A stretch of 30,782 nucleotides of DNA from a virus: IMG/VR virus record IMGVR_UViG_3300012347_000070, positions 1 through 30,782 of that record; one strand, given 5' to 3'. Positions within the stretch are counted from its first letter, which is position 1; every line of letters starts with the position of its first letter. Made by a program: the position numbers and the translations under genes. The notes under the pieces are model-generated. The model made no database searches, was not told where the DNA came from, and saw only the letters and a list, made by a program, of their open reading frames with translations. Shown one piece after another: positions 9,479 to 26,338 of the stretch.

Positions 9479-9543
9479 TGTTTTTAACATTTGAAAAGCA
9501 AAAGAACGAACTAGAAGTTAAATTAATTAATAAGCAAAAATAA
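9238..9543 (+). other. 101-codon stop-free -1 frame overlapping the 3' end of 8801..9478, entered at a T TTT TTT slippery site (9283..9289) and ending TAA 9541..9543 (TAATG with the next gene)
   Basis: Translated by hand: ...GFFLSFRQRIIEKYADLFGGESAENDFSEQAQFGKRWGWYSSIYALAQGDVRRFDEVTRLPLNQCLMFLTFEKQKNELEVKLINKQK*. The only ATG in this frame is at 9478 (a 21-aa micro-ORF, TAATG-coupled at both ends). Confidence 0.5.
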
Positions 9544-10540: not shown

Positions 10541-11604
10541 TAATTTACGCAAGAAGTCCTTATTTTGTTGAGGTAAACGAATCTTTGCAATTAGGCTCAA
10601 AGGTTGAATTGTTTATTTGGAATAATCCAGATAGCGAGCCTTTAACACCTACTTATACGTTTACTAAGTCTATTGCTTCAACTGTTAATCGTAAAAACGT
10701 TTATAACATAGCTCCATACATTAAAGAGTATATTGAAGCTATTACTCCGAGTGATTCTACGGATTCTATGTTAGCTTTAGTAAAAGTAAAGCGTTACAAA
10801 GAAGCTACGCTAGGTACTTACACGCTATTAGATACTACTACATACTATTCTACAAACGGATATACTGACTACTCAGGTGGTTATAATCAAGCTGGCTCAA
10901 CGGCACAACCTTTAGTTTTAGCTAACACGTCTTTAGAATATCGCTACGAAGAAGGGATTACCGATTACCCATTTGTAAACGTGTGGGCAGATAATTCTAG
11001 CCCTGCTACGCTAACCGTTACCTACAAAGATTTAAGAGGTCGTAACGAGGTTACAAACACTATTACAAGAGATGGAGCTAAGTTATACAAAGTGCCTTTG
11101 CGTACTTCATCAATAAAATACGACAAGGGTAATACTTGTACTATTAACTGGAAACCAACTGGCGAGTATATAGACGATACTTACACTATTAATGTAATGC
11201 CTATTTGTGAGCCTAGATATAACCCGATTGTTTGTCAGTTTATTAATCGTTTTGGAGGATGGCAATTCTTGACTTTCTTTAAAGGGCAAACTACTAATAT
11301 TCAAACGCAAGGGACTACGTATAATTTACTTCCTGATGCGGTAGACTACAACACTTCAAGAGCACAAACAAAGAGCTTTAATATTAATGGAGCTAAAAGC
11401 ATACGTTTAAATACGGGATGGATTCCAGAGAACTACTCGGAGCTTATCCAAGACTTACTTCTATCCGAGACGATTCTTTTAGATGGAGTGCCGGTAGAAG
11501 TTAAGACTTTATCAACAGATTTAAAGACCTCGTTAAAAGATAGAAATATTAATTATGAGGTAGAGTTTGCTTACGGGTTTAACCTTATTAATAACGTAGT
11601 TTAA
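10537..11604 (+). CDS. Hypothetical tail/virion structural protein, 355 aa
   Basis: ATGA overlap upstream. Ser/Thr/Asn/Tyr-rich beta-type composition. Confidence 0.7.
   Translation: MIIYARSPYFVEVNESLQLGSKVELFIWNNPDSEPLTPTYTFTKSIASTVNRKNVYNIAPYIKEYIEAITPSDSTDSMLALVKVKRYKEATLGTYTLLDTTTYYSTNGYTDYSGGYNQAGSTAQPLVLANTSLEYRYEEGITDYPFVNVWADNSSPATLTVTYKDLRGRNEVTNTITRDGAKLYKVPLRTSSIKYDKGNTCTINWKPTGEYIDDTYTINVMPICEPRYNPIVCQFINRFGGWQFLTFFKGQTTNIQTQGTTYNLLPDAVDYNTSRAQTKSFNINGAKSIRLNTGWIPENYSELIQDLLLSETILLDGVPVEVKTLSTDLKTSLKDRNINYEVEFAYGFNLINNVV
10677..10705 (+). promoter_or_regulatory. ECF-type bipartite motif copy 3 (TTCAAC-N15-CGTTTATA), intragenic
   Basis: AAC ends at 10682 and CGTTTATA is at 10698..10705. 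Confidence 0.3.
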
Positions 11605-13592
11605 TGATAAACGTACTATTATATATTTACGATACCGATAATAGCGAGCCACAAAGGATAGAGTTATTCAATGACGAAACTATTAGCGTTACTTCTAGTA
11701 TTCAAGACGTAAACGACATTTCTAAAATATTTACCGATTTTAGCCAGTCTTTTACTATCCCAGCTACACCTTATAATAATAAGATATTTAAACACTGGTA
11801 CGAAAACTCTATCGATAGTGGATTTGATGCTAGAAAAAGAAAGACTGCTTATATTGAGTTAGACTATGTACCATTTAGAAAGGGTAAAATTCAATTAGAG
11901 AAAGCAAGTATTAAAAACGGGCAAATCGAAAGCTATCAAATAACGTTTTTTGGGTCTTTAATATCTCTAAAAGATGCTTTTGCGGGTAAATATTTAAAAG
12001 ACTTAGACTTCAGCTCGATTAATTTTACTTATTCAGGAGCTGACGTAGTATCTAGGGTTTCAACAACTAATGATAGTACGGTTAAATTCCCTTTAATTAC
12101 TTCTTATAGAGTTTGGAAATATGGAGGCTCGGGTACTAGCGTAACAAATTGGGACATTTCTAAAAACGCATCTCCTATTTACCATACGGATTTATTTCCA
12201 GCGGTAAAGCTAAAAGGGATGTTAGATGTAATTGCGGATAACTTAGGTATTACTTTCGAGGGCTCTATCTTAGAAAACACAACAGAAACGGCTAAACATT
12301 TTCATCACGCTTATTTGTGGGCTAAAAATGCAAATAATTTTGAAATTAAGGTAGAAAGCCAATTAGTAGTATTTCAAACTAAATACTCTACTACTGGGTC
12401 TGAGGATTTATTCGATTTGCCTACTAGTACTTTAAATTATGTAGATGAAGGGGGAAGTACATTTATTGAAACGCAAACTTTTGATATTACTTGTACCGCT
12501 AATGGTATTGCCTCCGTATTTTATGTTTATCGTAATGGTGTTAAAATCTATGCTTTAAACTTTACTTCTTCAACAACTACGCAACAATTCGAACTTTTAA
12601 TTAGAGGTTCTGGTGCTTATACTTTCAAGATAAGCGCAGCAAGTACTTTAACCTATACCTCGGAGCTAAACTTTGCAATATCGGATGGCACAAGCGTTAT
12701 AAAAGATGTTGAAGTGATTCAAAGCACCTCACAAACTACTAACACTCTTATAGATTTGGCTAATTATATGCCAGAAATTAAGACCGAAGATTTTTTTGCA
12801 GGTGTTTTAAAGATGTTTAATCTTACTTGCTACTCAGATAGTCCCGGAGTATTTAAGATAGAGCAACTAGAAGACTGGTATAACGCTGGAGCAATTAGAG
12901 ATATTACTAGCCACGTTCATAGTGATAGTTTAGATATTGAAAGAGTTAAGCCTTACAATATGCTCAATTTTACTTACGAAGATAGCGAGGCTTTATTGAA
13001 CGTAGGATATAAGCAAAATTCTCCTATTCCTTATGGGAATTTGAATTACTCGTTAGATAACGATGGGGACGAGTATAGCGTAGCTTTACCTTTTGAGAAT
13101 ATGCTATTTAGCAAGTTTACCGGTACTAATTTGCAAGTAAGCTATGCTTTAAAGACCGATTATCAACAATATATACCAAAGCCGGTAATTTTATTCGACT
13201 ACGGAACGCTTCAATCTTGCTCAGCTTATTATATTAATGACGGTTCTACTACAACTTCAAAGACAAACTATAATGTTTTTGGACAAGATAGCTTAGTAAC
13301 TCCCAATGTTAATACGCTTAACTGGGGCTTAGAGCTTTCATCGTTTACGGGTAACGTTGAAAATAACACTTTGTTTAATGAATACTACTTAGCGTATTTA
13401 GATAATATTTACACGCTAAAGGCAAGAACTTTTAAGCTTAAAGCTTCTCTACCTATTAGCGTAATATCTAGTCTTAAAATGAACGATAGGCTAGTTATTC
13501 GGGACAAAAGATATATTATTAATTCGTTTACTACTAACCTTACAAGCGGGGAAGTAGACTTTACATTGTTACACGATTTTAGGGCGATATGA
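11604..13592 (+). CDS. Large tail structural protein, 662 aa
   Basis: TAATG overlap upstream. Size and composition are typical of tail hub, tubular or baseplate proteins. No specific family recognised. Confidence 0.7.
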   Translation: MINVLLYIYDTDNSEPQRIELFNDETISVTSSIQDVNDISKIFTDFSQSFTIPATPYNNKIFKHWYENSIDSGFDARKRKTAYIELDYVPFRKGKIQLEKASIKNGQIESYQITFFGSLISLKDAFAGKYLKDLDFSSINFTYSGADVVSRVSTTNDSTVKFPLITSYRVWKYGGSGTSVTNWDISKNASPIYHTDLFPAVKLKGMLDVIADNLGITFEGSILENTTETAKHFHHAYLWAKNANNFEIKVESQLVVFQTKYSTTGSEDLFDLPTSTLNYVDEGGSTFIETQTFDITCTANGIASVFYVYRNGVKIYALNFTSSTTTQQFELLIRGSGAYTFKISAASTLTYTSELNFAISDGTSVIKDVEVIQSTSQTTNTLIDLANYMPEIKTEDFFAGVLKMFNLTCYSDSPGVFKIEQLEDWYNAGAIRDITSHVHSDSLDIERVKPYNMLNFTYEDSEALLNVGYKQNSPIPYGNLNYSLDNDGDEYSVALPFENMLFSKFTGTNLQVSYALKTDYQQYIPKPVILFDYGTLQSCSAYYINDGSTTTSKTNYNVFGQDSLVTPNVNTLNWGLELSSFTGNVENNTLFNEYYLAYLDNIYTLKARTFKLKASLPISVISSLKMNDRLVIRDKRYIINSFTTNLTSGEVDFTLLHDFRAI

Positions 13593-13741
13593 TAGAACAA
13601 ATTTTAAAAATGCTTTCAAGTTTTGAGCATTATAATAGAAGCGAGGTAATAGAAATTGCTAAAGGCAAATATGAATTACCAAAAACATTTAAAAAGGGCT
13701 GGAATCAAATAAAACGTAATTACAAATGGCAAAATCAATAG
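13589..13741 (+). CDS. Small hypothetical protein, 50 aa (MIEQILKMLSSFEHYNRSEVIEIAKGKYELPKTFKKGWNQIKRNYKWQNQ)
   Basis: Below the track cutoff. ATGA overlap with the upstream stop. It fills an otherwise 133-nt gap and overlaps the next start by 16 nt. Confidence 0.45.
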   Translation: MIEQILKMLSSFEHYNRSEVIEIAKGKYELPKTFKKGWNQIKRNYKWQNQ

Positions 13742-15330
13742 AAGTAGATATTAACGTTAATAATAATATTGAAGGCTCTATATCTCAATTAAAGGCACTT
13801 AAAAGAGAGTTAAAAAACACGGCGGTAGGAACTGAAGAGTTTAAGAACTTATTTAATCAAATTGATGACTTAGAGGACAAGATTAAGTCAGCTAAAAACG
13901 TTTCTAGCGATTGGATAGACTCTTTAGAATCCGCTGGCGGGCCAATTGGTATGCTAGGAGGGGCTTTAAATAAAGCTAAAGTAGCTACTCAATCTTGGGG
14001 AGCGGCATTAAAAGCGGCTGGTATTGGTTTAATCGTTGCGGCGGTAGGTGGTTTAGTTGCGGCTTTCTCAGAATCTGAGTCCGCAATGAAAAAACTTGAG
14101 CCATTATTTATTGGGTTAGAGAAGATTTTAGGTGGTATTATGAAAGTATTTGAGCCTTTGCTAGATGCTTTTATTAGTCTTGCTTTAAACGCTTTGCCTT
14201 ATATCACAAAAGGTATAGGTGTATTCTATTCTAGCTTATTTGCTCTATTTACTTTAATTAAAAACGTAGGATTTGGAGCGGGTAAAATTCTTAAAGGGAT
14301 ATTTACTTTAGATTTCAAGTCTATTAGCGATGGATACGAGCAACTAAAAGGAAGTTGGGGCGAAGCAGTTAAAGATTTTGAGGCTACAAATAAGCGATTT
14401 AATGAAGGCACAAAGGAATTAACTAAAACCGAAAAGGAAAACTCTAAGAAAAGAGTAGAAAATAGAAAGACAGAAAAGAAAGAGAAAGATAAAGTTATTG
14501 ATTCGGAGCTACAAGCTATGCGAGAGTTTCAAACTGAATACGAAAACTATCTAAAGCGTTTAACTGATATTCAAAAGCAGTATAATACTGAAATAGAAGA
14601 CTTACAAGCGGTAACTGAACAACAAAAGCTAGATTTGTGGTATAAGCGTAGAGCGGAAGAAATAGACGCTATTACAAAAGACGCAGGCGAGAAGAATGAT
14701 TTATACGCTTTATTAGAAACTGAAAGAGCGATTAAGCAAGCCGAAATTGAAAAGAAAAAAGAGGATGAACTAACTAAGATTAGGCAAGAAGGTGAAGAGG
14801 CACGTACAAAATATGAAGCTGAGCAATCGGATGCTAGAAAGAAAATAGCGGAATTAGAAGTTAAAGCAAAGCAAGAATTATTACAAATTGGAGCAAATGC
14901 TTTAGGAGTAGCGGCAAGTCTTTTAGGAGAATCAACGGATGAAGGTAAAGCGGCAGCAATTGCTTCTACTACCATTTCTACTTACTTAGCAGCTCAACAA
15001 GCTTATGCTTCACAACTTGCTATACCTACACCTGATGCGCCTTTTAGAGCGGCTTTAGCGGCTGGGGTTGCGGTAGCTTCTGGTCTCGCAAACGTGCAAA
15101 AGATTTTATCGGTACAAACTCCAAATGGAGGTGGTAATGGTGGTGGAGTTCCTAGTGGAGGAGCACCGCAAGCACCATCTTTCAACGTAGTAGGCACTAG
15201 CGGAGCTAACCAAATTGCACAAACATTAGGACGAGAGCAAGCCCCATTAAAAGCTTACGTAGTTGCTCAAGACGTAACAACACAACAAGCTCTTAATAGA
15301 AATATTGTTACCTCGGCAAGCCTTGGATAA
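13726..15330 (+). CDS. Tape-measure-like or internal virion protein, 534 aa
   Basis: N-terminal coiled coil, hydrophobic Gly/Ala-rich membrane-like segments (AAGIGLIVAAVGGLVAAF), a long charged coiled coil (KKEKDK...EIEKKKEDE), and a C-terminal Gly-rich NGGGNGGGVPSGG. Confidence 0.5.
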   Translation: MAKSIEVDINVNNNIEGSISQLKALKRELKNTAVGTEEFKNLFNQIDDLEDKIKSAKNVSSDWIDSLESAGGPIGMLGGALNKAKVATQSWGAALKAAGIGLIVAAVGGLVAAFSESESAMKKLEPLFIGLEKILGGIMKVFEPLLDAFISLALNALPYITKGIGVFYSSLFALFTLIKNVGFGAGKILKGIFTLDFKSISDGYEQLKGSWGEAVKDFEATNKRFNEGTKELTKTEKENSKKRVENRKTEKKEKDKVIDSELQAMREFQTEYENYLKRLTDIQKQYNTEIEDLQAVTEQQKLDLWYKRRAEEIDAITKDAGEKNDLYALLETERAIKQAEIEKKKEDELTKIRQEGEEARTKYEAEQSDARKKIAELEVKAKQELLQIGANALGVAASLLGESTDEGKAAAIASTTISTYLAAQQAYASQLAIPTPDAPFRAALAAGVAVASGLANVQKILSVQTPNGGGNGGGVPSGGAPQAPSFNVVGTSGANQIAQTLGREQAPLKAYVVAQDVTTQQALNRNIVTSASLG

Positions 15331-15338: not shown

Positions 15339-15367
15339 TGTAACAAAAAAAACTTTAAACGTTTATA
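15339..15367 (+). promoter_or_regulatory. ECF-type bipartite motif copy 4 (TGTAAC-N15-CGTTTATA), 4 nt before ATG 15372
   Basis: AAC ends at 15344 and CGTTTATA is at 15360..15367. It lies in the intergenic gap ahead of the protease-scaffold-capsid block. Confidence 0.5.
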
Positions 15368-15371: not shown

Positions 15372-15950
15372 ATGCGAATCGTAGAATTAGTAATAGAAAA
15401 GGATTTAGACGGAATAGAAGCCGTAAGTCTGGTAGATGCGCCGGCAATAGAAGAGAATTTTATTGCTCTTAACAAAGAGTATAGAATGGACTTAGCCGAA
15501 GTAGATTCAGATAAGCGTATTCTTATGGGTGCTGCTTTAGTTCCTAACAAACAAATTTATCGAAGAAATGGTAAGGACGAGTTTTACGTATTCTTTAGCG
15601 AAGCAACGGTTAAGCAAGCGAGCGAGTTATTCTTAAAGAATGGAAACCAATCTAACGCAACTCTTGAGCATAAGAATAAATTCGAAGGGGCTACGGTTGT
15701 AGAATCTTGGATTATTGACAACCCAGAAATGGACAAGTCTAGGGCTTACGGATTCGATTTACCTAAGGGTACTTGGATGATTTCTATGAAGATAGAAGAC
15801 GAGAAAGTTTGGAAGGAAGTTAAAGAGGGTAAATACAAGGGCTTCTCTATCGAAGGATATTTTGCGGATAAATTAGAGATGTCTTTACAAGAGCTAGAAG
15901 AGGAAGAGTTAATTAATCAAATCATAAATATTTTACAAGATGGCGAATAA
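15372..15950 (+). CDS. XkdF-like putative prohead protease
   Basis: VSLVDAPAIEENFIAL ... ILMGAALVPN ... FFSEATVKQASELFLKNG ... NATLEHK resembles the PBSX XkdF family. It sits directly upstream of scaffold and capsid. Confidence 0.55.
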   Translation: MRIVELVIEKDLDGIEAVSLVDAPAIEENFIALNKEYRMDLAEVDSDKRILMGAALVPNKQIYRRNGKDEFYVFFSEATVKQASELFLKNGNQSNATLEHKNKFEGATVVESWIIDNPEMDKSRAYGFDLPKGTWMISMKIEDEKVWKEVKEGKYKGFSIEGYFADKLEMSLQELEEEELINQIINILQDGE

Positions 15951-16122
15951 AAAAACAAGCCCACAAGACTCTAAAAGAGCTTGTCTTTGCGAAGACGGGA
16001 CTTACTCTAAAGAATGTTGCAAAGGCGAAGAAATTAATCAGGGAATTGGAGCTACCGAAGGGCAAGCTACCTCGATTATTATTAATACAAATGAAGCACG
16101 AGTAATTATAAGAGAAAATTAA
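15940..16122 (+). CDS. Small Cys-rich hypothetical protein, 60 aa
   Basis: ATG ORF with 11-nt overlap upstream. Contains CLCEDGTYSKECC. Confidence 0.5.
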   Translation: MANKKTSPQDSKRACLCEDGTYSKECCKGEEINQGIGATEGQATSIIINTNEARVIIREN

Positions 16123-16136
16123 ACAAATAAATAAAT

Positions 16137-16736
16137 ATGGAATACAAGAACAAGTTAAACAAGATTAAAGCTGTTCTTTCTATGGAGATTAAACTAGCAC
16201 AAATGAAGTTAGAAGACGGAATTACCGTTATTGAAGCTGAAGAGTTTGCGCCAGAGTTTTCTGTAGGAATTGTAACAGAAGATGGTATTGTAGCTTTGCC
16301 AGTAGGCGAGTACAAGTTAGAGGACGGTATGATTTTAGTAGTAGCCGTAGAGGGTATTATTGCTGAAATTAAAGAAGCTGAAGCTGAAGCTCCAGAAGTG
16401 GAAGTAGAAGTAGAAGTAGCACCGGAAGAGGTTATTGAGCCGGAGATGGCAGCCGAAGCTCCTAAAGCTAAGCGTATTGTAGAATCAGTATCTAAAGAGA
16501 CTTTCTTTGCTGAAATCGAAAAATTACGTTCTGAGTTTTCTTTGATTAAGCAAGAGAACGAAGCATTAAAAGCGGAGAATGAATCGCTTAAGGTAGAGAT
16601 GTCTTCTATTGAAGCAGGCGCTGAGCCTTTAGCTCACAATCCAGAAGCGGGAATCGCTCCAAAACCTTTTAGAATTAGTAAAAACAAAACGTCTTCAATT
16701 GAAGATTCAGTATTTAGTAAAATCTTTTCAAAATAA
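16137..16736 (+). CDS. Scaffolding protein
   Basis: Located immediately upstream of the capsid gene. Acidic low-complexity EAEAEAPEVEVEVEVAPEE and a C-terminal coiled coil (EKLRSEFSLIKQENEALKAENESLK). Confidence 0.6.
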   Translation: MEYKNKLNKIKAVLSMEIKLAQMKLEDGITVIEAEEFAPEFSVGIVTEDGIVALPVGEYKLEDGMILVVAVEGIIAEIKEAEAEAPEVEVEVEVAPEEVIEPEMAAEAPKAKRIVESVSKETFFAEIEKLRSEFSLIKQENEALKAENESLKVEMSSIEAGAEPLAHNPEAGIAPKPFRISKNKTSSIEDSVFSKIFSK

Positions 16737-16756
16737 TTAACAAACAAATTTAAAAA

Positions 16757-17716
16757 ATGGCTACTACAACTAGTATTACAACAACTTACGCTGGCGAGTA
16801 TAAGAATCAGATTATCTCGGCTGCTTTATTATCTTCTCCTACTATCGATGCGGGTGGTATCACGGTTAAACCGGGTATCAAGTACAAAGAAGTGGTTAAG
16901 AAATTATCTACGGATGCAATCTTAAAAGATGCTTCTTGTGATTTTACGGCTACGTCTACAGTTACTTTAACTGAGCGTATTTTACAACCAGAAGAATTTC
17001 AAGTTAACTTACAATTATGTAAGAAAGACTTTCATTCTGATTGGTTATCAGCTCAACAAGGTTACTCAGCATTTGATGTATTGCCTTCTTCTTTCGCAGA
17101 CTTCTTAGTAGCTCACGTAGCGGCTAAAGTAGCAGCTAAGAACGAGACAAACATCTGGACTGGTGTAACTGCTAACGCAGGTGAGTTCAACGGATTCTCT
17201 ACATTATTAGCGGCAGATGCTGCTTTACCAGCTGCTCAAGAGGTTGCAGGTACAACGGTTACTGCTTCTAACGTAGTAGCTGAATTAGGTAAAATTGTAG
17301 ATGCTATCCCAGCTGCTCTTTACGGACAAGACGGTTTACATATCTACGTATCTCAGAACATCGCTCGTGCTTACGTTCGTGCTTTGGGTGGGTTTGCTGC
17401 TTCTGGCTTAGGTGCTAACGGTACTAACGCAATGGGAACTCAATGGTATAACAACGGTTCTTTATCATTTGACGGAGTAAAAATCTTCGTAGCAAATGGT
17501 TTAGCGGCTAACACTGCAATCGCTACTTTGAAAGAGAACTTGTACTTCGGTACTGGTGTTCTTGCAGATATGGATGCTTCTTCTGTAAAAGTTATCGATA
17601 TGGCAGACGTAGACGGTTCAGAAAACGTACGTGTAGTAATGCGTATGACAGCTGGTGTTCAGTACGGTTCGGTAGAAGATATCGTAACTTACGGAATCAC
17701 TAACGCAGCTAACTAA
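16757..17716 (+). CDS. Major capsid protein
   Basis: 319 aa, follows the scaffold, and is followed by a strong terminator. Ala/Gly/Thr-rich with strongly biased codon use (GCT, GGT, ACT, GTT). Confidence 0.7.
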   Translation: MATTTSITTTYAGEYKNQIISAALLSSPTIDAGGITVKPGIKYKEVVKKLSTDAILKDASCDFTATSTVTLTERILQPEEFQVNLQLCKKDFHSDWLSAQQGYSAFDVLPSSFADFLVAHVAAKVAAKNETNIWTGVTANAGEFNGFSTLLAADAALPAAQEVAGTTVTASNVVAELGKIVDAIPAALYGQDGLHIYVSQNIARAYVRALGGFAASGLGANGTNAMGTQWYNNGSLSFDGVKIFVANGLAANTAIATLKENLYFGTGVLADMDASSVKVIDMADVDGSENVRVVMRMTAGVQYGSVEDIVTYGITNAAN

Positions 17717-17730
17717 TTAGCTTATAAGAT

Positions 17731-17761
17731 AGCACCTCGTTAATTCGGGGTGCTTATTTTT
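17731..17761 (+). terminator. Rho-independent terminator after the capsid gene
   Basis: agcacctcg (17731..17739) pairs with cggggtgct (17746..17754). 9 bp including one G-U pair, loop ttaatt, then tattttt. Confidence 0.8.
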
Positions 17762-17781
17762 CATCTTTTAAATTAATCAAT

Positions 17782-18309
17782 ATGTCTTGTGATATTTCCT
17801 TAGGTAGAATTGAGCCTTGCAAAACGAGTAACGGGGGGTTAAAAGCCGTTTACTTCGTGAATTGGGGCGATGCTACGGGGGTTACTTATGATGCTACAAA
17901 CACGGATGCTATCTCGGCTGTAACTGGGACTCCGGTAGCTTATAAGTACGACCTAAAGGGTAATAGTTCTTTCGAGCAAACTATTACTTCTTCTCGTGAG
18001 AATGGTACTACCTTCTTCGAGCAAACGTTAAACTTAACGTTAAAACAATTGTCTATTGTAGACCATAAGCAAATTAAGCTTTTGTCTTACGGACGTCCTC
18101 AAGTTATCGTAGAAGATAACAACGGAAACTTATTCTATTGCGGTCTTCAGCACGGTATGGAAGTATCTGGCGGTACTATCGTTACTGGGGCTGCAATGGG
18201 AGATTTAAGCGGTTATACTTTAGTCTTATCTGGTCAAGAGCCAGTACCGGCTAACTTCTTAACTACTACTTTAGTAGCGGCTGGATTCACCGTAACTCCG
18301 GGCGCTTAG
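17782..18309 (+). CDS. Abundant virion protein candidate (possible major tail/tube protein), 175 aa
   Basis: Bracketed by two terminators. The N-terminal C-x-x-x-NGGLKAVYFVN block resembles tail-tube proteins of Bacteroidota phages as I recall them (weak). Confidence 0.65.
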   Translation: MSCDISLGRIEPCKTSNGGLKAVYFVNWGDATGVTYDATNTDAISAVTGTPVAYKYDLKGNSSFEQTITSSRENGTTFFEQTLNLTLKQLSIVDHKQIKLLSYGRPQVIVEDNNGNLFYCGLQHGMEVSGGTIVTGAAMGDLSGYTLVLSGQEPVPANFLTTTLVAAGFTVTPGA

Positions 18310-18335: not shown

Positions 18336-18361
18336 GGGGGAGCAGATGTCTTCCCCTTTTT
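18336..18361 (+). terminator. Rho-independent terminator
   Basis: gggggag (18336..18342) pairs with cttcccc (18350..18356), loop cagatgt, then ttttt. Confidence 0.7.
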
Positions 18362-18370
18362 CGTTTAAAA

Positions 18371-18399
18371 GAAACAAAACCTATAAAATAACGTTTATA
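18371..18399 (+). promoter_or_regulatory. ECF-type bipartite motif copy 5 (GAAAC-N16-CGTTTATA), 5 nt before ATG 18405
   Basis: GAAAC at 18371..18375 and CGTTTATA at 18392..18399. It lies immediately after a terminator. Confidence 0.55.
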
Positions 18400-18404
18400 G
18401 AATA

Positions 18405-18731
18405 ATGATAGTTTTAAGAGAATCCAATTTAGCGCAAAGTGTAAGATTCGTTCCTACTCGTAGAAATGCGGGGAATAAGCTATTTTTGCGAAACGAAACT
18501 ACTAACGTAGAAGTAGAATACGATATTACTTGTACTCAAACGTCTTACTATCTTACTTTCTCAAAGGTATTAACTTTAGAAGAAGGACACTTTTACACAA
18601 TGACTATAAAGCAAGATGCCGAGTTAATCTTTAGAGATAAGGTATTTTGCACGAATCAAACAATAGGAGCGTATAGCGTTAATAATAACGAGTACGTACA
18701 AAACGACCAAAATATAATTTTCTATGAGTAA
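18405..18731 (+). CDS. Hypothetical virion-module protein, 108 aa
   Basis: ATG ORF with 8-nt overlap with the portal gene start. Confidence 0.65.
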   Translation: MIVLRESNLAQSVRFVPTRRNAGNKLFLRNETTNVEVEYDITCTQTSYYLTFSKVLTLEEGHFYTMTIKQDAELIFRDKVFCTNQTIGAYSVNNNEYVQNDQNIIFYE

Positions 18732-20463
18732 CGTTCACGTTTTTAACTTTGAATCTCATAAGCCCCCGCAATCCGTAGAATCTAACAAAGAAGCTTGGGT
18801 TAATTTCGGAGACGATAACGACTACTTCAAGTACTTAATTGATAGATATAATAACTCGACTACTAATAACTCGGTTATTAATTCTATTAATAAGTTAATC
18901 TATGGTAGGGGATTAGATGCAACGGACTCAAACAAAAAGCCGAACGAATACGCTCAGATGAAAATGTTATTTCGTCCTGAGGTATTAAAGTGCGTTATTA
19001 CCGACTATAAATTACTTGGACAAGGATACTTTCAATTAATCTATAACAAGGCTAAGAATGCGATTATTAGAGTAGAGCACGTGCCAGCTCAATTAATCCG
19101 CTCCGAGAAATGCAATGAGAAAGGCGAAATTACTGGTTATTACTATTCTGATAACTGGCAAGACATTAAGAACTTTGTGCCAAAGCGTATTAGTGCATTT
19201 GGTTATGGCGATAAAACGTTAGAGATTCTTTGTGTTAGAGATTATAGCGTAGGACAAAAATACTATTCTAACGTAGATTATATCGGGGCTTTGCCTTACG
19301 CTAAGTTAGAAGAAGAGATTGCTGACTATTTGATTAACGATGTTCAAAACGGGTTTTCCCCTACTAGCGTTATTAACTTTAATAATGGTGTACCAGACGA
19401 AGAGAAACAAGGTTTAATTGCAGCAGACGTAAAGCGTAAATTAGCGGGTTCTAGCGGTGCTAAAATTGTTGTAGCGTTCAATAGTGACGAGACAAAGAAA
19501 ACGACTATTGATAGCGTACCTTTAAACGATGCTCCGGCACACTATACATATTTAAGTGAAGAATCGAGAGGCAAGATTTTATTAGGTCACTCTATTACTA
19601 GTGGCTTGCTATTTGGTATCCCTTCTAACAATGGATTTAGCTCAAACGCTGACGAGTTAAAGAATGCTTCTATCTTGTTTGATAATATGGTAATTCGTCC
19701 TAAACAAGGAACGGTTTTAGATGCTATCGACAAGATTTTAGCGTTTAACAATATTAGCTTAAATCTTTACTTTAAGACTTTACAACCTTTGGAATTTATT
19801 GACCAGAATCCGGCAATGAATACCGAGCAAGTAGAAGAAGAGACTGGTTTGAAGCTTTCTTCTCAATTAGAGGAGCTAGAAACTTACGGAGAAGAGTTAG
19901 ACCTTAACGAGTGGGAGTTAATCGATTCTAGGGTAGTAGAAAGCCTTGAGGAGGAAGAGAAATTAAACGCTGAGTTAGAATTATTAAACAATCCTAAAAA
20001 ATCGGTATTTAGTAAGATTTGGGAGTTAGCAACGGTATCTACCGGAGTGGCTAGACCAGACTTAAAATCTGCTTTAGATGGTAAGTTATTTATTTCTCGT
20101 TATCGTTATAGCGGTAACCCTACTCCCGAAAGAGCATTTTGTAAAAAAATGATGCAAATGAATAAACTATATCGTAAAGAAGATATAGATAAGATGAGCC
20201 AAAAGAATGTTAATCCCGGCTTTGGTATGGCTCCTAACCCAAATGCTCCTTACGATATTTTTCTTTGGAAGGGAGGCGGTAAATTAAGCAATGAGTTTCA
20301 GTTTGGGACTTGTAAGCATTTTTGGACGAGAGAAACTTATAAGAGATTCACAGACCCAAGAAAGAAAGGAACGGTAGAGATTACCCCGGCACAAGCTCGC
20401 AAGGCTGGCGAAATTTTACCAACGGTAGACAAGAGAGCGTATATTGCGCCTCACGATATGTAA
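18724..20463 (+). CDS. Portal protein with an extended Cys-containing C-terminal domain
   Basis: 579 aa. The N-terminal two thirds look portal-like (size, YYSDNW, acidic stretch EEETGLKLSSQLEELE). The C-terminal ~140 aa carry ERAFCKKM ... GTCKHFW. Confidence 0.6.
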   Translation: MSNVHVFNFESHKPPQSVESNKEAWVNFGDDNDYFKYLIDRYNNSTTNNSVINSINKLIYGRGLDATDSNKKPNEYAQMKMLFRPEVLKCVITDYKLLGQGYFQLIYNKAKNAIIRVEHVPAQLIRSEKCNEKGEITGYYYSDNWQDIKNFVPKRISAFGYGDKTLEILCVRDYSVGQKYYSNVDYIGALPYAKLEEEIADYLINDVQNGFSPTSVINFNNGVPDEEKQGLIAADVKRKLAGSSGAKIVVAFNSDETKKTTIDSVPLNDAPAHYTYLSEESRGKILLGHSITSGLLFGIPSNNGFSSNADELKNASILFDNMVIRPKQGTVLDAIDKILAFNNISLNLYFKTLQPLEFIDQNPAMNTEQVEEETGLKLSSQLEELETYGEELDLNEWELIDSRVVESLEEEEKLNAELELLNNPKKSVFSKIWELATVSTGVARPDLKSALDGKLFISRYRYSGNPTPERAFCKKMMQMNKLYRKEDIDKMSQKNVNPGFGMAPNPNAPYDIFLWKGGGKLSNEFQFGTCKHFWTRETYKRFTDPRKKGTVEITPAQARKAGEILPTVDKRAYIAPHDM

Positions 20464-20466
20464 TTT

Positions 20467-20985
20467 ATGATACAATCAGGAATATATAAAATAACAAGTC
20501 CGACTGGCAAAATATATATTGGTCAATCTTCAAATATTAATAGAAGAATGATTGAACATAAATATAACTCTAAGACAAAAAATTTAAAATTATATTCTTC
20601 AATACGAAAATATGGTATTGAAAATCATAAAATAGAAATACTTTTTTTGTCAAATAATAATGATGAAAAAAATAAAATGGAAAGTTTTTATATTAATGAA
20701 TTTAATGCTATTGAAAAAGGATTGAATCACACAGATGTAACAACTAATACTCTTGGATTTTTAGGAAAAAAACATACTAAAGAAAATGTTTTAAAAATTA
20801 AAGAAAGAATGAATGGTTATAAGCCAATTAATGCGATAAAAAAAAGAATGAAAAAAGTATTTTGTGGTTATACCAATAAATTTTATGATAGCGTTTCAGA
20901 TTGTGCAAGAGATTTGAATGTTTCTCATTCTTATATTTCAAACCAATTAAATGGTAAGATTTTTAATAAATATAATATTATTTAA
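20467..20985 (+). CDS. Free-standing GIY-YIG homing endonuclease (mobile element)
   Basis: GIYKITSPTGKIYIGQS ... NRRMIEHK ... FYINEFN catalytic motifs. NUMOD3-like GKKHTKENVLKIKE. C-terminal HTH-like ARDLNVSHSYISNQLNGK. Very AT-rich: I counted 14 G+C in 20521..20580 against 28 in 20401..20460. Confidence 0.85.
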   Translation: MIQSGIYKITSPTGKIYIGQSSNINRRMIEHKYNSKTKNLKLYSSIRKYGIENHKIEILFLSNNNDEKNKMESFYINEFNAIEKGLNHTDVTTNTLGFLGKKHTKENVLKIKERMNGYKPINAIKKRMKKVFCGYTNKFYDSVSDCARDLNVSHSYISNQLNGKIFNKYNII

Positions 20986-20986
20986 T

Positions 20987-21484
20987 ATGCAGGCACTTTT
21001 TGTAAGTAGAGAGGATATTGTTAAGTTTACCGCTATTAGTGGTAACATCGATGTTGATAAATTCGTTCAGTGGGTTAAGGTAGCTCAAGACACGCATATA
21101 CAAGGATATTTAGGTACTAAGTTATTTAACAAAATTAACGATGGTATCGTAAATGCTAACTTGAATAGCTCTTATACAATGCTTTTAAACGTGTATATTA
21201 AGCCTATGGTTATCCATTGGACGATGGTAGAGTTCTTGCCCTTTGCAGCGTATACAATCGCAAGTAAAGGGGTATTTAAGCATAATAGCGAGAATAGTAC
21301 TAACGTAGAAAAAAGCGAGGTAGATTACCTAGTAGAGAAAGAGCGGTCAATCGCTGAGCATTATACTCGTAGATTTATCGATTATATGAGTTTTAATCAA
21401 TCTTCATTTCCAGAATATAACACGAATAGCAATGCAGATATGTACCCAGACAAGCAAGCGGACTTCGGTGGCTGGTACCTCTAG
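20987..21484 (+). CDS. Hypothetical protein, possible head-tail adaptor
   Basis: ATG 20987, one nt after the endonuclease stop, preferred over ATG 20951 inside the endonuclease gene. Confidence 0.6.
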   Translation: MQALFVSREDIVKFTAISGNIDVDKFVQWVKVAQDTHIQGYLGTKLFNKINDGIVNANLNSSYTMLLNVYIKPMVIHWTMVEFLPFAAYTIASKGVFKHNSENSTNVEKSEVDYLVEKERSIAEHYTRRFIDYMSFNQSSFPEYNTNSNADMYPDKQADFGGWYL

Positions 21485-21549
21485 GGGTAAATACACTCCT
21501 AAAGCGTCTAACATTAAAAAACTAAAGGTTTACCTTAACAAAATAGAAA

Positions 21550-21888
21550 ATGGCTCTTAATTTCACGCATACAAAAGGCGATACATTTAACGAAGTAGCT
21601 TTTGAAGTAAAGAAGAACTCGGTAGCAATTGATTTAACCGGTGCAACAATTCGAATGCAACTTCGTAAATGCTACTCGGATGCAAGTGCGGTCTTGTCTC
21701 TTACTTCGGTAGCTTCGGCTGGCATTACAATCACAAACGCAACTAGCGGACAATTTAAAATCAATGCTCAAATAATCGACATTGAAGTATTTAATTACGT
21801 TTACGACATTCAATTTACTTTAGCAAGTGGCGAAGTAAAGACATACGTAAAAGGAGGATTCAATGTAACACCAGAAGTAACACGCTAA
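21550..21888 (+). CDS. Small Ig-like/BppU-N-like tail-associated protein
   Basis: TKGDTFNEVAFEV ... IDLTGATIRMQLRK resembles the N-terminal domain of baseplate upper proteins. It lies directly upstream of the fibre gene. Confidence 0.45.
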   Translation: MALNFTHTKGDTFNEVAFEVKKNSVAIDLTGATIRMQLRKCYSDASAVLSLTSVASAGITITNATSGQFKINAQIIDIEVFNYVYDIQFTLASGEVKTYVKGGFNVTPEVTR

Positions 21889-21891
21889 GAA

Positions 21892-24800
21892 ATGGAAGAT
21901 ATTATAGACATCATAGTTACCGAAACGACCAATTTAATCGAGATTACGTCTCAACCTACGGATGAGATTATCGATGTCAATATAATAGACAATAGAGAGG
22001 ACATTACGCTTAACGTAACACCTTCTGTAGTAGAGATTAATATAAACTCTTTAACGGGTAACTTTGGGGTTAATTGGGGCGATATCGAAGGTACACTTGC
22101 CGACCAAACCGACTTACAAAACGTTTTAAACGCAAAGGCAGATTTAGTAGATGGAAAAGTACCTTCGTCTCAATTGCCTAGCTATGTAGATGACGTAATA
22201 GAAGTAGCTAATTATGCAGCACTTCCGGTAACGGGAGAAGTAGGTAAAATCTATATTACGTTAGATACTAATTTTATTTATCGCTGGAGCGGTTCAACAT
22301 ACATTGAGATTAAAGATTCAAGTGCCGTATGGGGTGCGATAACTGGAACGTTAAGCTCTCAAACCGATTTACAATCTGCTTTAGACGCAAAAGTACCTTA
22401 TACTGGTGCTACTGGAAACGTTAATCTAGGCGAATACGGAGCAACGGTAGGTTATTTAGGATTTGATACTACACCTACTAGCACACCAACTGGAATTGGT
22501 ACTACTTATTGGGATTCTTTTTATAGAACGTTATCATTAATAGATGGCGATGGAGATACTACTTTACAAATAGGTCAAGAACAAAGAGTTTTAGTTCACA
22601 ATAATACGGGCTCTACTTTAACCGATGGGCAAGTAGTTTATGTAATTGGCTCAACTGGCGAGCTTCCAAGCGTAGCTTTGGCTTCAAATACAAGTGAAAC
22701 TACTTCAAGCGTTACTTTTGGTATCGTTACCGAATCTATCGCACACGGAGCAAATGGATTTATTACTACTAGTGGAATTATTCACGGGTTAAATACAAAT
22801 GCTTATGACGAGGGAGCAGCAATTTACTTAGGTTCTACGGCTGGAACGTTTACTCAAACAAAACCGGTAGCACCTGCTAATAGTGTTTTAGTAGGATATA
22901 TAATCAAGAAATCGGGGGGTAATGGTTCTATCTTTGTTAAGATTCAAAATGGTTATGAATTAGAAGAGCTTCACGATGTTTTAATAACTTCAAAAGCTAA
23001 TAACGATGGATTATTTTACGAATCATCAACAAGCCTTTGGAAGAATAAAAGCATTGCAACGGTTTTAGGAGGTACTCCGATTACCGGCTCAGGAGCAACT
23101 GGATACTATGCTAGATTTACTTCGAGTAATGTTATTTCTGATGGATTTATTCAAACTACTAGCAACATTACCTATGTTGAAGGTATGGGTTTATCTACTG
23201 GTAGCGGTTTAGACATTGAAGGTAGTTTTGGAGGTGGTAGCGATGGACTTAAATTACGTTCTTACGATGAAACTACGGGTAAGGCATATATTGAATTCTT
23301 CAATACTAGCGGAAACTTTCGCTTAGGATTAGAAGGCTCAACTGGTGGAGGTATTCTTCCCGGTTCAACTGCTTACGCTACGGTTTTAACAAGTGGATTA
23401 ACTGCTAAAAATTTAGAGTTTGGTACTAATAATACTAAACGTTTAACATTAGACGGAACGACTGGAGCGGCTACGTTTACTTCTTCAGTTACTACTTCAG
23501 CTTTATACGTCACTGGAATGACTGCGGGAAGCGGTGCGATTTATCACACTGGCTCACGTTTGACTTTTGCAAACTACAACACTAGCGGAACTTTACATTT
23601 TGAGGTAAATGGAGGGGTAGGAGCTTTAACTTTAAACGCAGATAAAAGCGCAACTTTTGAAAGTACATTAAGTGCAACTGGAGCAACATTAACGGGAGCT
23701 TTAAGCGGTACGAGTGCTACGTTTACGGGTACAAGTGCTTCTTCAGTTTTAACTTTGGCAAATTCAAGCGGAGGAACAAAGGCAGATTTTACAATTACCG
23801 AAAATACGGGATTAATAATTAATTCCTACGAAGGTGCTTCAGCTAGAAGTATTAATTTACAAGTAGGAGGTGCTTCGGCTTTATCTATTGCTACATCTGG
23901 TGCAGCAACATTTTCGAGTAGTGTTACGGCAAGCGGAGGAGTAAACGCAGGAGATTCTAAATTCTTTAATTCAGTACAATTAACAGATAGTTTAGGTGGA
24001 ACTTGTCAAGGATTCTTATGGACAGACGCAGCTAATACTTTAAAAATAGGTACGGGTACGGTTGCAGGTGGTAATGTTAAGATGACTATCACTTCCGCTG
24101 GCAACGTAGGCATCGGAACGACTTCGCCGAGCGAACTATTACACCTATCAAAAGCGACTTATCCATTTATTAAGTTAACCGAAACAACTTCAAATACAAG
24201 TGGTCAGTTTGGATATGACACTCCAACTGCTGAATGGAGAATGAGAACTTTGACAAGTACACCTTTGACTTTTGGTACTAACGATACCGAACGTATGCGG
24301 ATTGCTAGCGGAGGGAATGTGTTGATAAATAAAACAACTGCTAGAGGAAACGAATACTTAGGAATTGAATCTGGGGGTAATGAATTTTGCAATTTCCAAA
24401 GTACTGGTGGAGTTAGGGCTTTTAGAGTTAATAATGTTGATGTAGAAGGATTTAATACAACAGGTACTACAATTTTTGTAGGTAAATTAAACTCTAGCGG
24501 TCGCTCAATTAATGCAGGGGGAACTATTAATGCAATGGGTTTAGATTATGCTGAATATATGACTAAATCAACTTCCGAAAATATCAACAAAGGGGATATT
24601 GTAGGAATAGATTCAAATGGTTTATTGACAGATTTATTTGAATTGTCCATATCTTTTGGCATTAAATCTACAAATCCTTCTTTTGTTGGTGGCGATGAAT
24701 GGGGTGCAAATAAAGATGATACAAATTTATTAGAACAAGAAAGACAAAAAGTAGATAGAATAGCTTTTTCTGGTCAAGTTCCTTGTAATGTTTTAGGAGC

Positions 24801-24957
24801 TAATGTAGGAGACTATATTATTCCAGTAAATGACAATGGAAAAATCAAAGGTATAGCAGTTTCTAATCCAACTTTTGAACAATACCAAATTTCAGTCGGT
24901 AAGGTTTGGAAAATAATGGAAGACGGAAGAGCTTGGGTAGCAGTTAAAATAGGATAA
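21892..24957 (+). CDS. Tail fibre/spike, 1021 aa, with a C-terminal Peptidase_G2-like intramolecular chaperone domain
   Basis: Duplicated N-terminal motif WG(D/A)I-x-GTL-x-(D/S)QTDLQ-x-(V/A)L(N/D)AK. Then GKVPSSQLPSYVDDV...GEVGKIYITLD...YRWSGSTY. Many S/T/G/A-rich repeats (GAATFTSSVT, GAATFSSSVT, SAGNVGIGTTSP). GLDYAEYM near the C-terminus. Confidence 0.8.
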   Translation: MEDIIDIIVTETTNLIEITSQPTDEIIDVNIIDNREDITLNVTPSVVEININSLTGNFGVNWGDIEGTLADQTDLQNVLNAKADLVDGKVPSSQLPSYVDDVIEVANYAALPVTGEVGKIYITLDTNFIYRWSGSTYIEIKDSSAVWGAITGTLSSQTDLQSALDAKVPYTGATGNVNLGEYGATVGYLGFDTTPTSTPTGIGTTYWDSFYRTLSLIDGDGDTTLQIGQEQRVLVHNNTGSTLTDGQVVYVIGSTGELPSVALASNTSETTSSVTFGIVTESIAHGANGFITTSGIIHGLNTNAYDEGAAIYLGSTAGTFTQTKPVAPANSVLVGYIIKKSGGNGSIFVKIQNGYELEELHDVLITSKANNDGLFYESSTSLWKNKSIATVLGGTPITGSGATGYYARFTSSNVISDGFIQTTSNITYVEGMGLSTGSGLDIEGSFGGGSDGLKLRSYDETTGKAYIEFFNTSGNFRLGLEGSTGGGILPGSTAYATVLTSGLTAKNLEFGTNNTKRLTLDGTTGAATFTSSVTTSALYVTGMTAGSGAIYHTGSRLTFANYNTSGTLHFEVNGGVGALTLNADKSATFESTLSATGATLTGALSGTSATFTGTSASSVLTLANSSGGTKADFTITENTGLIINSYEGASARSINLQVGGASALSIATSGAATFSSSVTASGGVNAGDSKFFNSVQLTDSLGGTCQGFLWTDAANTLKIGTGTVAGGNVKMTITSAGNVGIGTTSPSELLHLSKATYPFIKLTETTSNTSGQFGYDTPTAEWRMRTLTSTPLTFGTNDTERMRIASGGNVLINKTTARGNEYLGIESGGNEFCNFQSTGGVRAFRVNNVDVEGFNTTGTTIFVGKLNSSGRSINAGGTINAMGLDYAEYMTKSTSENINKGDIVGIDSNGLLTDLFELSISFGIKSTNPSFVGGDEWGANKDDTNLLEQERQKVDRIAFSGQVPCNVLGANVGDYIIPVNDNGKIKGIAVSNPTFEQYQISVGKVWKIMEDGRAWVAVKIG

Positions 24958-24972
24958 TAAAAAATAAATAAT

Positions 24973-25284
24973 ATGGCATTCACTTGGGTAATCAGTTCAT
25001 TAGATTCTATCCCATCCCTTGACGGAATGGATAAAGTAATTTCTACAATTCATTACAGAGCGCAAAAGCAACACGAAGACTTTACTGCAGATACGTACGG
25101 CGCGCTCAGTGTCGATGCACCACACGAAGCGAGCTTCACTCCTTACGATGAAGTTACGAAAGAAATGGTAGAAGGATGGCTAGAGGCTGGACTAGATACC
25201 GAAGCGATTGAGGCTAACCTAGATGCACAAATAGAGAACTTTTTAAACCCTCCCCTGGTGGCTTACGTGCTACCTTGGTCGTAA
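24973..25284 (+). CDS. Hypothetical acidic protein, 103 aa
   Basis: ATG ORF after the fibre gene. Confidence 0.6.
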   Translation: MAFTWVISSLDSIPSLDGMDKVISTIHYRAQKQHEDFTADTYGALSVDAPHEASFTPYDEVTKEMVEGWLEAGLDTEAIEANLDAQIENFLNPPLVAYVLPWS

Positions 25285-25287: not shown

Positions 25288-25316
25288 GAAACAAAAAATA
25301 CTAAATTACGTTTATA
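25288..25316 (+). promoter_or_regulatory. ECF-type bipartite motif copy 6 (GAAAC-N16-CGTTTATA), 20 nt before ATG 25337
   Basis: GAAAC at 25288..25292 and CGTTTATA at 25309..25316. Intergenic, ahead of the lysis cassette. Confidence 0.55.
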
Positions 25317-25336: not shown

Positions 25337-25606
25337 ATGAAAATTGATTTAAACTTTAACTTAGTAGACTTAGATGGTAAGTCTATTGAAAATGCAAACG
25401 CTGGTAAGCTAGTAGCTAGTGCATTAGTTCAACAATCTAAAGGCGATGCCTTGAAGTTTTGGGATTGGGCGGTAGCACTAAACAAAGGCGAGGTATTAGA
25501 CTTAGATTCTAGCGACCAAGAGACATTTAAAAACTTTGTAAAGGATAACGAGAACTTCGCTATTATTGCAAAGGCGCAAATTTTACACAAATTAAAAAAA
25601 GACTAA
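25337..25606 (+). CDS. Hypothetical protein, 89 aa
   Basis: ATG ORF, first gene after motif copy 6. Confidence 0.6.
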   Translation: MKIDLNFNLVDLDGKSIENANAGKLVASALVQQSKGDALKFWDWAVALNKGEVLDLDSSDQETFKNFVKDNENFAIIAKAQILHKLKKD

Positions 25607-25607
25607 C

Positions 25608-25934
25608 GTGTTAAACTCCCTTCCCGACTGGCTTACTAATATTTTAGCTGCTTCAATTGCATCACTTGCAACTTATTTTAGCACACGAAAAAAAGAGAAC
25701 GTAGACATACAAGGAGGGGAGTTATCAAATACACAAGAAGCCATTAAGATATGGCGAGAAATGGCGCAAGAAATGAGCGATAAAGTAAAAGAATTAAGTG
25801 ACAAAATCGACAATCTAACCGCTGAAGTACATAGTCTTAAAAGCGAGAACTCTTCGCTTAAATCTAAACTAAATCTTCTTGATGAAAATAACGAAGTTAA
25901 GCCAAAAAGGGTTAGAGCTAATAAAGCAGTTTGA
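25608..25934 (+). CDS. Membrane protein of the lysis cassette (holin or i-spanin-like)
   Basis: GTG start. One N-terminal TM segment (WLTNILAASIASLATYF) followed by a charged coiled coil (KVKELSDKIDNLTAEVHSLKSENSSLKSKL). Confidence 0.5.
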   Translation: MLNSLPDWLTNILAASIASLATYFSTRKKENVDIQGGELSNTQEAIKIWREMAQEMSDKVKELSDKIDNLTAEVHSLKSENSSLKSKLNLLDENNEVKPKRVRANKAV

Positions 25935-26337
25935 AGGCTTGAGCCTTACTCCCTATGTATGCGCTGGGGGTATAAATACGATAGGTTACGGGAACACCTA
26001 CTATACGAACGGTAAGAAAGTTACCTTAAAAGACCCAAAGATTACACTACAACAAGCCGAAGAGCTTTTAAAACATTCTCTTTCTACGTATGAAAAAGCG
26101 GTTGATTCATTTTGCCGTGATGACATATCTCAAAGCAACTTCGATGCACTCGTTTCTTTTGCTTATAATCTAGGCACGGGGGCATTACAAAAATCCACAC
26201 TTATCAAAAAAGTAAACGCTAACCCTAAAGACGTTACCATAGCGGATGAGTTCCTTAAATGGAATAAAGCTAACGGACGTGTTTTAGCGGGACTTACTAA
26301 ACGTAGACAAGCGGAAGCTAACCTTTACTTCTCATAA
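25882..26337 (+). CDS. Endolysin, GH24 (T4/P1-type) lysozyme
   Basis: LIKQFEGLSLTPYVCAGGINTIGYGNT catalytic region. ATG 25882 (track used TTG 25879). Confidence 0.85.
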   Translation: MKITKLSQKGLELIKQFEGLSLTPYVCAGGINTIGYGNTYYTNGKKVTLKDPKITLQQAEELLKHSLSTYEKAVDSFCRDDISQSNFDALVSFAYNLGTGALQKSTLIKKVNANPKDVTIADEFLKWNKANGRVLAGLTKRRQAEANLYFS

Positions 26338-26338
26338 T

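Follow-up and report, generated by a model that had tools for sequence, protein, structure and literature searches.

Candidate late promoters adjoining start codons and a predicted divergent ECF-like sigma factor in a phage with a probable Bacteroidota host

T4 gp55 and SPO1 gp33/34 are phage late sigma factors with a short AT-rich promoter word, TATAAATA in T4. The T4 protein corresponds to a sigma2-like part alone and needs gp33 and the sliding clamp, and its promoters have no −35 element and no coupling to the start codon. The Bacillus subtilis SigW promoter, TGAAAC-N16-CGTA, is the canonical type for extracytoplasmic function (ECF) sigma factors of group 4. Leaderless mRNAs, in which the transcription start (+1) coincides with the start codon, are known for lambda cI transcribed from PRM and for many actinobacterial genes. 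Here we describe four candidate late promoters, P1 to P4, and a predicted ECF-like sigma factor gene, 6431-6907, in IMG/VR virus record IMGVR_UViG_3300012347_000070; this whole stretch of 30,782 nucleotides (nt) is called the window below. The proposed scheme resembles that of phiEco32 gp36 and phage 7-11, where a small phage sigma redirects host core polymerase to structural-gene clusters and the promoters were detected as over-represented intergenic words (PMC4331800). Promoters of the CGT-box type are known from Flavobacterium psychrophilum, where they are named SM6 (PMC9723704).

A two-part motif in front of four late gene blocks

The 8-mer CGTTTATA occurs seven times in the window, always on the + strand (3838, 3904, 8789, 10698, 15360, 18392 and 25309). 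An earlier note, made on this DNA from its letters alone, had listed six of these positions correctly and missed the copy at 3904. Its statement that the − strand of the window carries no copy agreed with our count of zero, and its near-miss 7-mers at 718, 28376 and 29484 are present; three further near misses lie on the − strand. Four copies fall in four separate intergenic gaps, where 0.10 would be expected from the density in coding DNA. When all intergenic 8-mers were counted de novo, CGTTTATA came first, followed by words overlapping it and by AACAAAA-type words. The four intergenic sites share (G/T)(A/T)AACAAAA-N12-CGTTTATA, equivalent to AAC-N15/16-CGT. The earlier note had named AAC as the −35 element; that box is conserved, but the conserved element is longer (AACAAAA). 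For the bipartite pattern ACAA-N13-19-CGTTTAT, 0.26 matches were expected and six found, each on the + strand; none of 100 shuffles reached six.

Each intergenic site is a candidate late promoter on the + strand. P1 (8769-8800) consists of a −35 element gTACAAAA (C at 8772), a 16-nt spacer and CGTTTATA as −10 element at 8789-8796, followed by catt and the ATG at 8801. Its −35 element shares bases with the large terminase stop codon, and the block that P1 heads consists of tail-type genes (8801-15330). P2 (15340-15371) combines GTAACAAAA (C at 15344), a 15-nt spacer, CGTTTATA at 15360-15367 and ggat before the ATG at 15372, the start of a block with the protease, probable scaffold and probable capsid genes (15372-18309). 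In P3 (18371-18404), GAAACAAAA (C at 18375) is separated by 16 nt from CGTTTATA at 18392-18399, with gaata before the ATG at 18405, and the block that follows (18405-25284) contains an open reading frame (ORF) of 108 amino acids (aa), the portal gene and tail genes. P4 (25288-25336) has GAAACAAAA (C at 25292), a 16-nt spacer and CGTTTATA at 25309-25316; 20 nt rich in A separate this element from the ATG at 25337, where the first gene of the lysis cassette (25337-27770) begins. The gaps that hold P1 (31 nt), P2 (41 nt) and P4 (52 nt) contain little besides the promoter. The four intergenic copies head blocks of tail, head, portal/tail and lysis genes; the earlier note had placed them in front of late blocks, and the protease, portal and endolysin are matched to known families.

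To score sites across the window, a two-block weight matrix was trained on relatives alone, with window-identical sequences left out. P3 (18392) scored 29.1 bits, P2 (15360) 28.3, P4 (25309) 27.2 and P1 (8789) 23.5. Elsewhere in the window the intragenic copy at 3838 scored 18.3 bits, the next best site 10.9 and the best − strand site 7.1; the maximum over 100 shuffles was 19.5 bits. No match to TAnnTTTG, the −7 box of the Bacteroidota primary sigma, overlaps P1 to P4.

A role as internal promoters was weighed for the copies at 3838, 3904 and 10698 and rejected. All three are read in one phase as xxC GTT TAT Axx (Val-Tyr). Those at 3838 and 3904 drift synonymously among relatives (AAT GTT TAT, AAC GTG TAC, TAT GTT TAC) and their upstream "AAC" parts are not kept; the copy at 10698 has no usable −35 element. 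These three copies are coding coincidences, with just four of the seven as functional candidates, and of the six bipartite copies claimed in the earlier note the four intergenic ones stood. The early 120-aa protein encoded at 3707-4069 holds the Val-Tyr word twice, 66 nt apart (NVYIEYW and FYVYK), which accounts for the two copies at 3838 and 3904.

Conservation in relatives and distance to the start codon

Relatives were drawn from IMG/VR, where at least 599 stretches encode relatives of the portal protein and at least 514 encode relatives of the 6431-6907 product. Orthologs of the genes at 8801, 15372, 18405 and 25337 are preceded by conserved AAC(A)AAA and CGTTTAT boxes with variable spacers and flanks, even where the product of the downstream gene is no more than about 40% identical (range among relatives, 40 to 100%). 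Across 148 unique orthologous sites the information content peaks at A-C-A-A-A and at C-G-T-T-T-A-T-A. The −35 A-C is present in about 98% of them in one of two registers (consensus, AAAACAAAA); at the −10 element, C occurs in 87%, the following T in 94% and A in 80%, the G and T being fixed by anchoring. Of 140 sites from relatives, 94 have an AAC-to-CGT spacer of 16 nt and the other 46 one of 15 nt. The earlier note had recognized ECF-type logic in the window, with AAC at −35, CGT at −10 and a spacer of 15 to 16 nt between them; more than 100 divergent relatives keep these boxes and this spacing while the spacer sequence varies.

P1 is present 5′ of the orthologous gene in every sigma-bearing relative in which an ortholog of the 8801 gene was found, an outcome that bears out the comparison suggested in the earlier note. 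The motif of P2 precedes 52 orthologous protease genes, with a variable spacer, that of P3 precedes 75 orthologs, and P4 is kept at 13 unique orthologous sites. Over 164 related loci (1.9 Mb), the gene (+) strand had 239 matrix matches of at least 15 bits and the opposite strand 2, and 151 of 175 unique matrix contexts lie directly 5′ of an ORF start. The matrix was trained on part of the sites it scored, which makes the match count partly circular; the strand and position statistics are not.

Some relatives depart from this pattern. In a subclade whose sigma is about 55% identical to that of the window (L063, L065, L068, L073, L074, L078, L108-L110, L118, L120 and L136), the −10 element (G/T)GTTTA(A/T) replaces CGTTTAT, and AGACGAAA stands at one −35 position; this natural specificity variant could be used to locate the sigma residues that read the C. 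In L032, L034, L035, L038 and L072, the holin-like gene is preceded by another conserved sequence (tttagtacatttacaacac...aaaacaaaa) in place of the AAC/CGT motif, which suggests that the lysis-unit promoter has been replaced.

The same architecture is found in a cultured phage. In Nonlabens phage P12024S, exact ACAA-N13-19-CGTTAAT sites number six where 0.38 would be expected, every one of them on the + strand; none of 100 shuffles gave as many. A seventh, looser site lies at 179, and one site stands before the terminase genes. These sites read AAAACAAA-N16/17-CGTTAAT-N4/5-ATG, with the ATG 11 to 12 nt past the C, and differ from those of the window in the −10 word (CGTTAAT instead of CGTTTAT) and in a spacer that is one nucleotide longer. 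Its gp33, annotated solely as a hypothetical protein containing Sigma-70 region 2, aligns with the window sigma family at an hhalign probability of 94.8% (E=5e-8, 23% identity), and the gene order is that of the window: sigma, a protein with four conserved cysteines (4-Cys protein), a small terminase-like protein and the large terminase. On other contigs, distant sigma homologs (35 to 36% identity) are accompanied by GTTTATA-N5-ATG or ACAA...GTTATA-N5-ATG right after the terminase gene. Because P12024S and these distant homologs share it, the late-promoter design appears to be older and wider than the window phage. The −10 word varies with the sigma lineage (CGTTTAT in the window, CGTTAAT in P12024S, GTTATA in L170), a pattern that fits recognition by the phage sigma and to which host differences could also contribute. 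We found no published description of these promoters or of P12024S transcription in a literature search of incomplete coverage, and an earlier description is possible.

The closeness of the motif to the start codon is a feature that the earlier note overlooked. In the window, the C of CGT lies 12, 12, 13 and 28 nt before the first base of the start codon for P1 to P4, respectively. Among 151 unique sites the distance is 12 nt in 121, 13 nt in 16 (together 137), 28 to 29 nt in 12 and another value in 2; the P4 orthologs are those with a C-to-ATG distance of 28 to 29 nt. The −10 elements of ECF promoters span about −14 to −7, and in SigW and sigmaE promoters the C of the −10 element is at −12 or −13. 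For Mycobacterium tuberculosis SigL, the shared C-G is numbered −14/−13 (PMC6372665). From these positions, +1 is expected 12 to 14 nt past the C and would therefore fall on the ATG itself. The late mRNAs from P1 to P3 are probably leaderless, with +1 on or within 1 to 2 nt of the A of the ATG, and initiation on that A is favored because the C-to-start distance is so tightly conserved. By the same geometry, the P4 mRNA would carry an A-rich leader of about 16 nt.

A predicted sigma factor and the proposed late switch

The gene at 6431-6907 (+ strand) encodes a 158-aa protein that is the proposed reader of the motif. The earlier note had put this product forward as the reader, and both sequence profiles and the predicted fold match it to ECF sigma factors. 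It has 111 close homologs, several of them labeled "sigma24 family" by the Joint Genome Institute (JGI), and the family comprises 3,475 cluster representatives at E<=1e-3 in a library of 1.8 billion proteins. A profile of 72 sequences (A3) aligned residues 4-150 of the query with residues 15-159 of SigL in the PDB (6dv9_F, E=1.4e-4), followed by SigR sigma2 (4e-4), SigH (7e-4), SigW (8e-4) and RpoE (4e-3). The homology to solved ECF sigmas is therefore collinear across sigma2 and sigma4, in agreement with a shallower profile. Pfam Sigma70_r2 matched 16 of 27 homologs, but only at E<=1 (best E, 0.003).

The AlphaFold model of the 158-aa product (predicted local distance difference test score [pLDDT], 80.8) is a two-domain helical fold with sigma2 and sigma4 and without regions 1.1 and 3. 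Nearly all of the first 30 Foldseek matches in the PDB are ECF sigmas with a probability of about 1 (sigmaE, AlgU, SigL, SigH, SigW and RpoE). The predicted C-terminal domain superposes on the complex of sigmaE region 4 with −35 DNA (2h27) at a template modeling (TM) score of 0.69 to 0.71; the whole-chain TM score is low, about 0.3 to 0.4, as expected when a flexible linker joins the two domains. Taken together, sequence and model predict that the 6431-6907 product is a divergent ECF-like sigma.

The sigma gene closes the early region just 5′ of the terminase genes. Since no matrix match precedes it, it is presumably transcribed by host polymerase. The order sigma, 4-Cys protein, terminase and late genes is kept down to 23 to 36% sigma identity. 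Next to the sigma gene, overlapping its stop codon, lies the gene for a 144-aa protein (6871-7305) with four conserved cysteines (GLGD...CGCDERK...C...CxxC). This protein has no Pfam or PHROG family match; it adjoins the sigma gene in all divergent relatives and corresponds to gp35 of P12024S (BLASTP E=2e-4 to 6e-35). In P12024S its gene sits, together with the terminase genes, behind a sigma-type promoter of its own. The 4-Cys protein could be a sigma partner, an anti-sigma factor or a packaging accessory.

In the scheme that we propose, host RNA polymerase would transcribe the early/replication region, at whose end lies the 6431-6907 gene, with the terminase genes after it. The product would act as a minimal ECF-like sigma whose region 4 reads AACAAAA at −35 and whose region 2 reads CGTTTATA at −10, across a spacer of 15 to 16 nt. 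It would redirect host core polymerase to P1 to P4, each nearly filling the short gap before the tail, head, portal/tail or lysis block. At P1 to P3, where the start codon lies 12 to 13 nt past the C of CGT, transcription would begin on or near the A of the ATG and yield leaderless mRNAs. What we infer from these sequence patterns is that the sites depend on the sigma, that they act late and where exactly transcription starts, and we consider it likely that P1 to P4 are late promoters read by the phage's own divergent ECF-like sigma. We would put at about even the chances of a broader proposal, namely, that throughout a large, mostly uncultured group of Bacteroidota siphoviruses that includes P12024S, a sigma that neither Pfam nor the ECF classification includes drives every late operon from start-codon-fused promoters and gives leaderless late messages.

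Several observations weigh against this scheme. In single-sequence searches the 6431-6907 product had no Pfam or PHROG match at E<=0.01, and searches of the PDB and of about 50,700 GenBank phage records were empty; Pfam Sigma70_r2 scored it at 13.9 bits, below the gathering cutoff of 24. In the shuffle comparison suggested by the earlier note, in which the bipartite pattern stood out (see above), the 8-mer count was weak by itself: 7 copies against 2.74 ± 1.76 in dinucleotide shuffles, with 7 reached in 2 of 100. P1 in the window has TAC in place of AAC. A distant relative, L165, has syntenic late genes with no matrix match, in a stretch that does not show whether the sigma is present. For the leaderless reading, SigL-like numbering (C at −14) puts +1 on the G of the ATG, so that a discriminator shorter by 1 to 2 nt would be needed; GTG stands at the start-codon position in 8 unique sites of relatives; and only about 5.5% of mRNAs in F. 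psychrophilum are leaderless (PMC9723704).

The best-surviving alternative, which we nevertheless regard as improbable, is that a host ECF sigma reads the motif and that the 158-aa phage protein has another role. Bacteroidota genomes average about 22 ECF sigmas (PMC7826278), AAC/CGT is generic ECF logic that includes the CGT-box promoters of flavobacteria (PMC9723704), and the link between the phage protein and the sites is indirect. However, the phage protein itself has the ECF-like profile and fold and keeps its synteny with the late region throughout the relatives, and the −10 word differs by sigma lineage, as phage-borne specificity would produce. It would also be unusual for all structural genes to rely on a stress-gated host sigma.

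Less probable again is the possibility that the boxes bind a phage late activator or other DNA-binding protein working with the host primary-sigma holoenzyme, the 158-aa protein being a helix-turn-helix regulator. The sites do not contain the Bacteroidota primary-sigma elements (TTTG at −33 and TAnnTTTG at −7; PMC9723704), and their 15- to 16-nt spacing together with AAC/CGT is an ECF signature. Such a regulator would be compatible with Pfam signals for helix-turn-helix and Sigma70_r2 that are all subthreshold and with modest Foldseek E values (1e-3 to 1e-1), but the protein is collinear with SigL, SigW and SigH across both sigma2 and sigma4.

We think it very unlikely that the motif acts at the level of RNA or translation, as a processing site or as a Kozak-like context for Shine-Dalgarno-independent ribosomes, instead of as a promoter. 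The 8-mer does end 4 to 5 nt from the start codon at three sites, and upstream contexts in Bacteroidota are A-rich (PMC6847099). Yet at the lysis cassette the whole bipartite unit is shifted 16 nt farther from the ATG with its internal spacing intact, about 47 other genes of the window are A-rich upstream and lack the motif, and the conserved AAC box lies 29 nt 5′ of the ATG; there was no Rfam match. Finally, an artifact of chance or composition in an AT-rich, single-strand-coded genome, for which the marginal 8-mer count and the three coding coincidences might speak, is effectively refuted by the intergenic concentration, the matrix outliers, the 239:2 strand bias, the positional precision over 164 loci and conservation as far as cultured P12024S.

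Genome context and comparison with described systems

An exact overlap of 55 nt between its ends (1-55 and 30728-30782) shows the window to be the circular assembly of an entire genome, about 30.7 kb long; an ORF from 30572 crosses the circular junction. All genes lie on one strand and are densely packed, with about 1.0 kb of intergenic DNA in total. The early region contains ERF and RusA genes, and the large terminase (403 aa) is encoded at 7558-8769. In L083, a near-identical relative, the large terminase (2766-4571) is 601 aa long and contains an intein (Intein_splicing/Hint). The head block (within 15372-18309) encodes an XkdF-type protease (15372-15950; Pfam PF14550, E=2e-17), a coiled-coil protein that is the probable scaffold and a 319-aa probable capsid protein. 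The portal gene lies at 18724-20463 (phrog_33693, E=1e-88); directly 3′ of it, within the P3 late operon, is an ORF for a homing endonuclease with GIY-YIG and NUMOD domains (20467-20985; PF01541, E=9e-8). Tail and tape-measure-like proteins are encoded in the late region, the endolysin at 25879-26337 (phrog_7, E=1e-55), and a metallophosphoesterase is also annotated; all of these genes are on the + strand.

Three candidate terminators on the + strand punctuate the late region. The head operon closes just 5′ of P3 with an intrinsic terminator (18336-18362) made up of GGGGGAGCAGATGTCTTCCCC and a T run. The earlier note had placed a terminator before the 18405 block, and the hairpin (18336-18356) is indeed there; compensatory changes among 15 relatives in five of its six predicted stem pairs point to a conserved structure. 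A terminator-like hairpin at 17731-17760 (9 pairs, 6 of them G-C, then a T run) follows the probable capsid gene within the P2 unit, and another at 27819-27853 (a 13-pair stem, then TTTG) ends the lysis unit of P4.

Of 51 ORFs, 3 have a Shine-Dalgarno-like word in front, compared with 12.5% of random windows, and the 20 nt 5′ of ORF starts are 48% A. A shortage of Shine-Dalgarno words together with A-rich upstream contexts is the pattern described for Bacteroidota (PMC6847099, PMC9723704). The nearest cultured phages, Nonlabens (Persicivirga) P12024S and P12024L, infect a flavobacterium (portal identity, 33%; E=1e-80). A host among the Bacteroidota is probable, because Shine-Dalgarno sequences are not used and the closest cultured phage infects a flavobacterium. 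A host scan via prophages gave one match, a 20.7-kb contig binned with a Flavipsychrobacter metagenome-assembled genome (portal identity, 47%). The retrieved stretch of this contig, which does not span the sigma region, had no matrix match, just AACAAAA...TTTATAA-like sequences. A megablast search of the window against GenBank phages returned a single 149-nt match to a crAss-like phage, and Rfam and tRNA scans of the window gave no matches. An integrase and small genes in divergent orientation occur in L166 (3339-4526) and L167 (2261-3448), relatives with a sigma of about 36% identity; on this basis, part of the sigma-bearing phage group appears to be temperate.

A search for early promoters in the window found none: TAnnTTTG is barely enriched genome-wide (51 matches against 41.5 expected), and a scan for sigma-70 promoters of the Escherichia coli type gave 35 matches, fewer than the 46.6 expected. 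The three longest intergenic regions are 27771-27931, 28232-28425 and 194-312, with terminator-like hairpins at 27819-27847 and 28261-28280, and early promoters probably lie within these regions. TAnnTTTG boxes at 195 and 27768 are candidates, for a motif that is not enriched overall.

The predictions amount to a transcription map (one sigma, four promoters and three terminators) for an abundant, uncharacterized phage group, and they identify a widespread metagenomic sigma family missed by curated models. Phage ECF sigmas escaped the survey behind the ECF reclassification, according to its authors (PMC7826278). Genetic tools for Bacteroidota are few, and the promoter/sigma pair could serve there as a compact, orthogonal part for gene expression. 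Leaderless translation in a phylum without Shine-Dalgarno use could be probed with the natural 12-nt spacing conserved between promoter and AUG; if the scheme is true, phage late mRNAs could have a distinct route of translation initiation. Cultured P12024S, with the same design, provides a model open to bench testing.

With ECF group 4 and SM6 promoters, the proposed late promoters share the AAC −35 element, the CGT −10 element, a spacer of 15 to 17 nt and a predicted two-domain sigma2-sigma4 reader. They differ in that the sigma is phage encoded, lies beyond Pfam thresholds and has no obvious anti-sigma factor, in their longer boxes (AACAAAA and CGTTTATA) and in the fusion of most sites to the start codon. 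In comparison with phiEco32 and 7-11, whose promoters have a single −10-like element (tAATGTAtA) without a −35 element, whose hosts are Enterobacteria and whose sigma is accompanied by a holoenzyme inhibitor (PMC4331800), the search of GenBank phages found no sequence similarity between their sigmas and that of the window. The lambda cI and actinobacterial mRNAs are leaderless cases, whereas in the window group leaderless initiation would, from the geometry, be the apparent rule for the first genes of late operons. By analogy, the scheme would combine a familiar phage late sigma with textbook ECF promoter logic, and it stands apart from phiEco32, 7-11, T4 and SPO1 in having a −35 as well as a −10 element, another host phylum, an extremely divergent predicted sigma and coupling of the promoter to the start codon.

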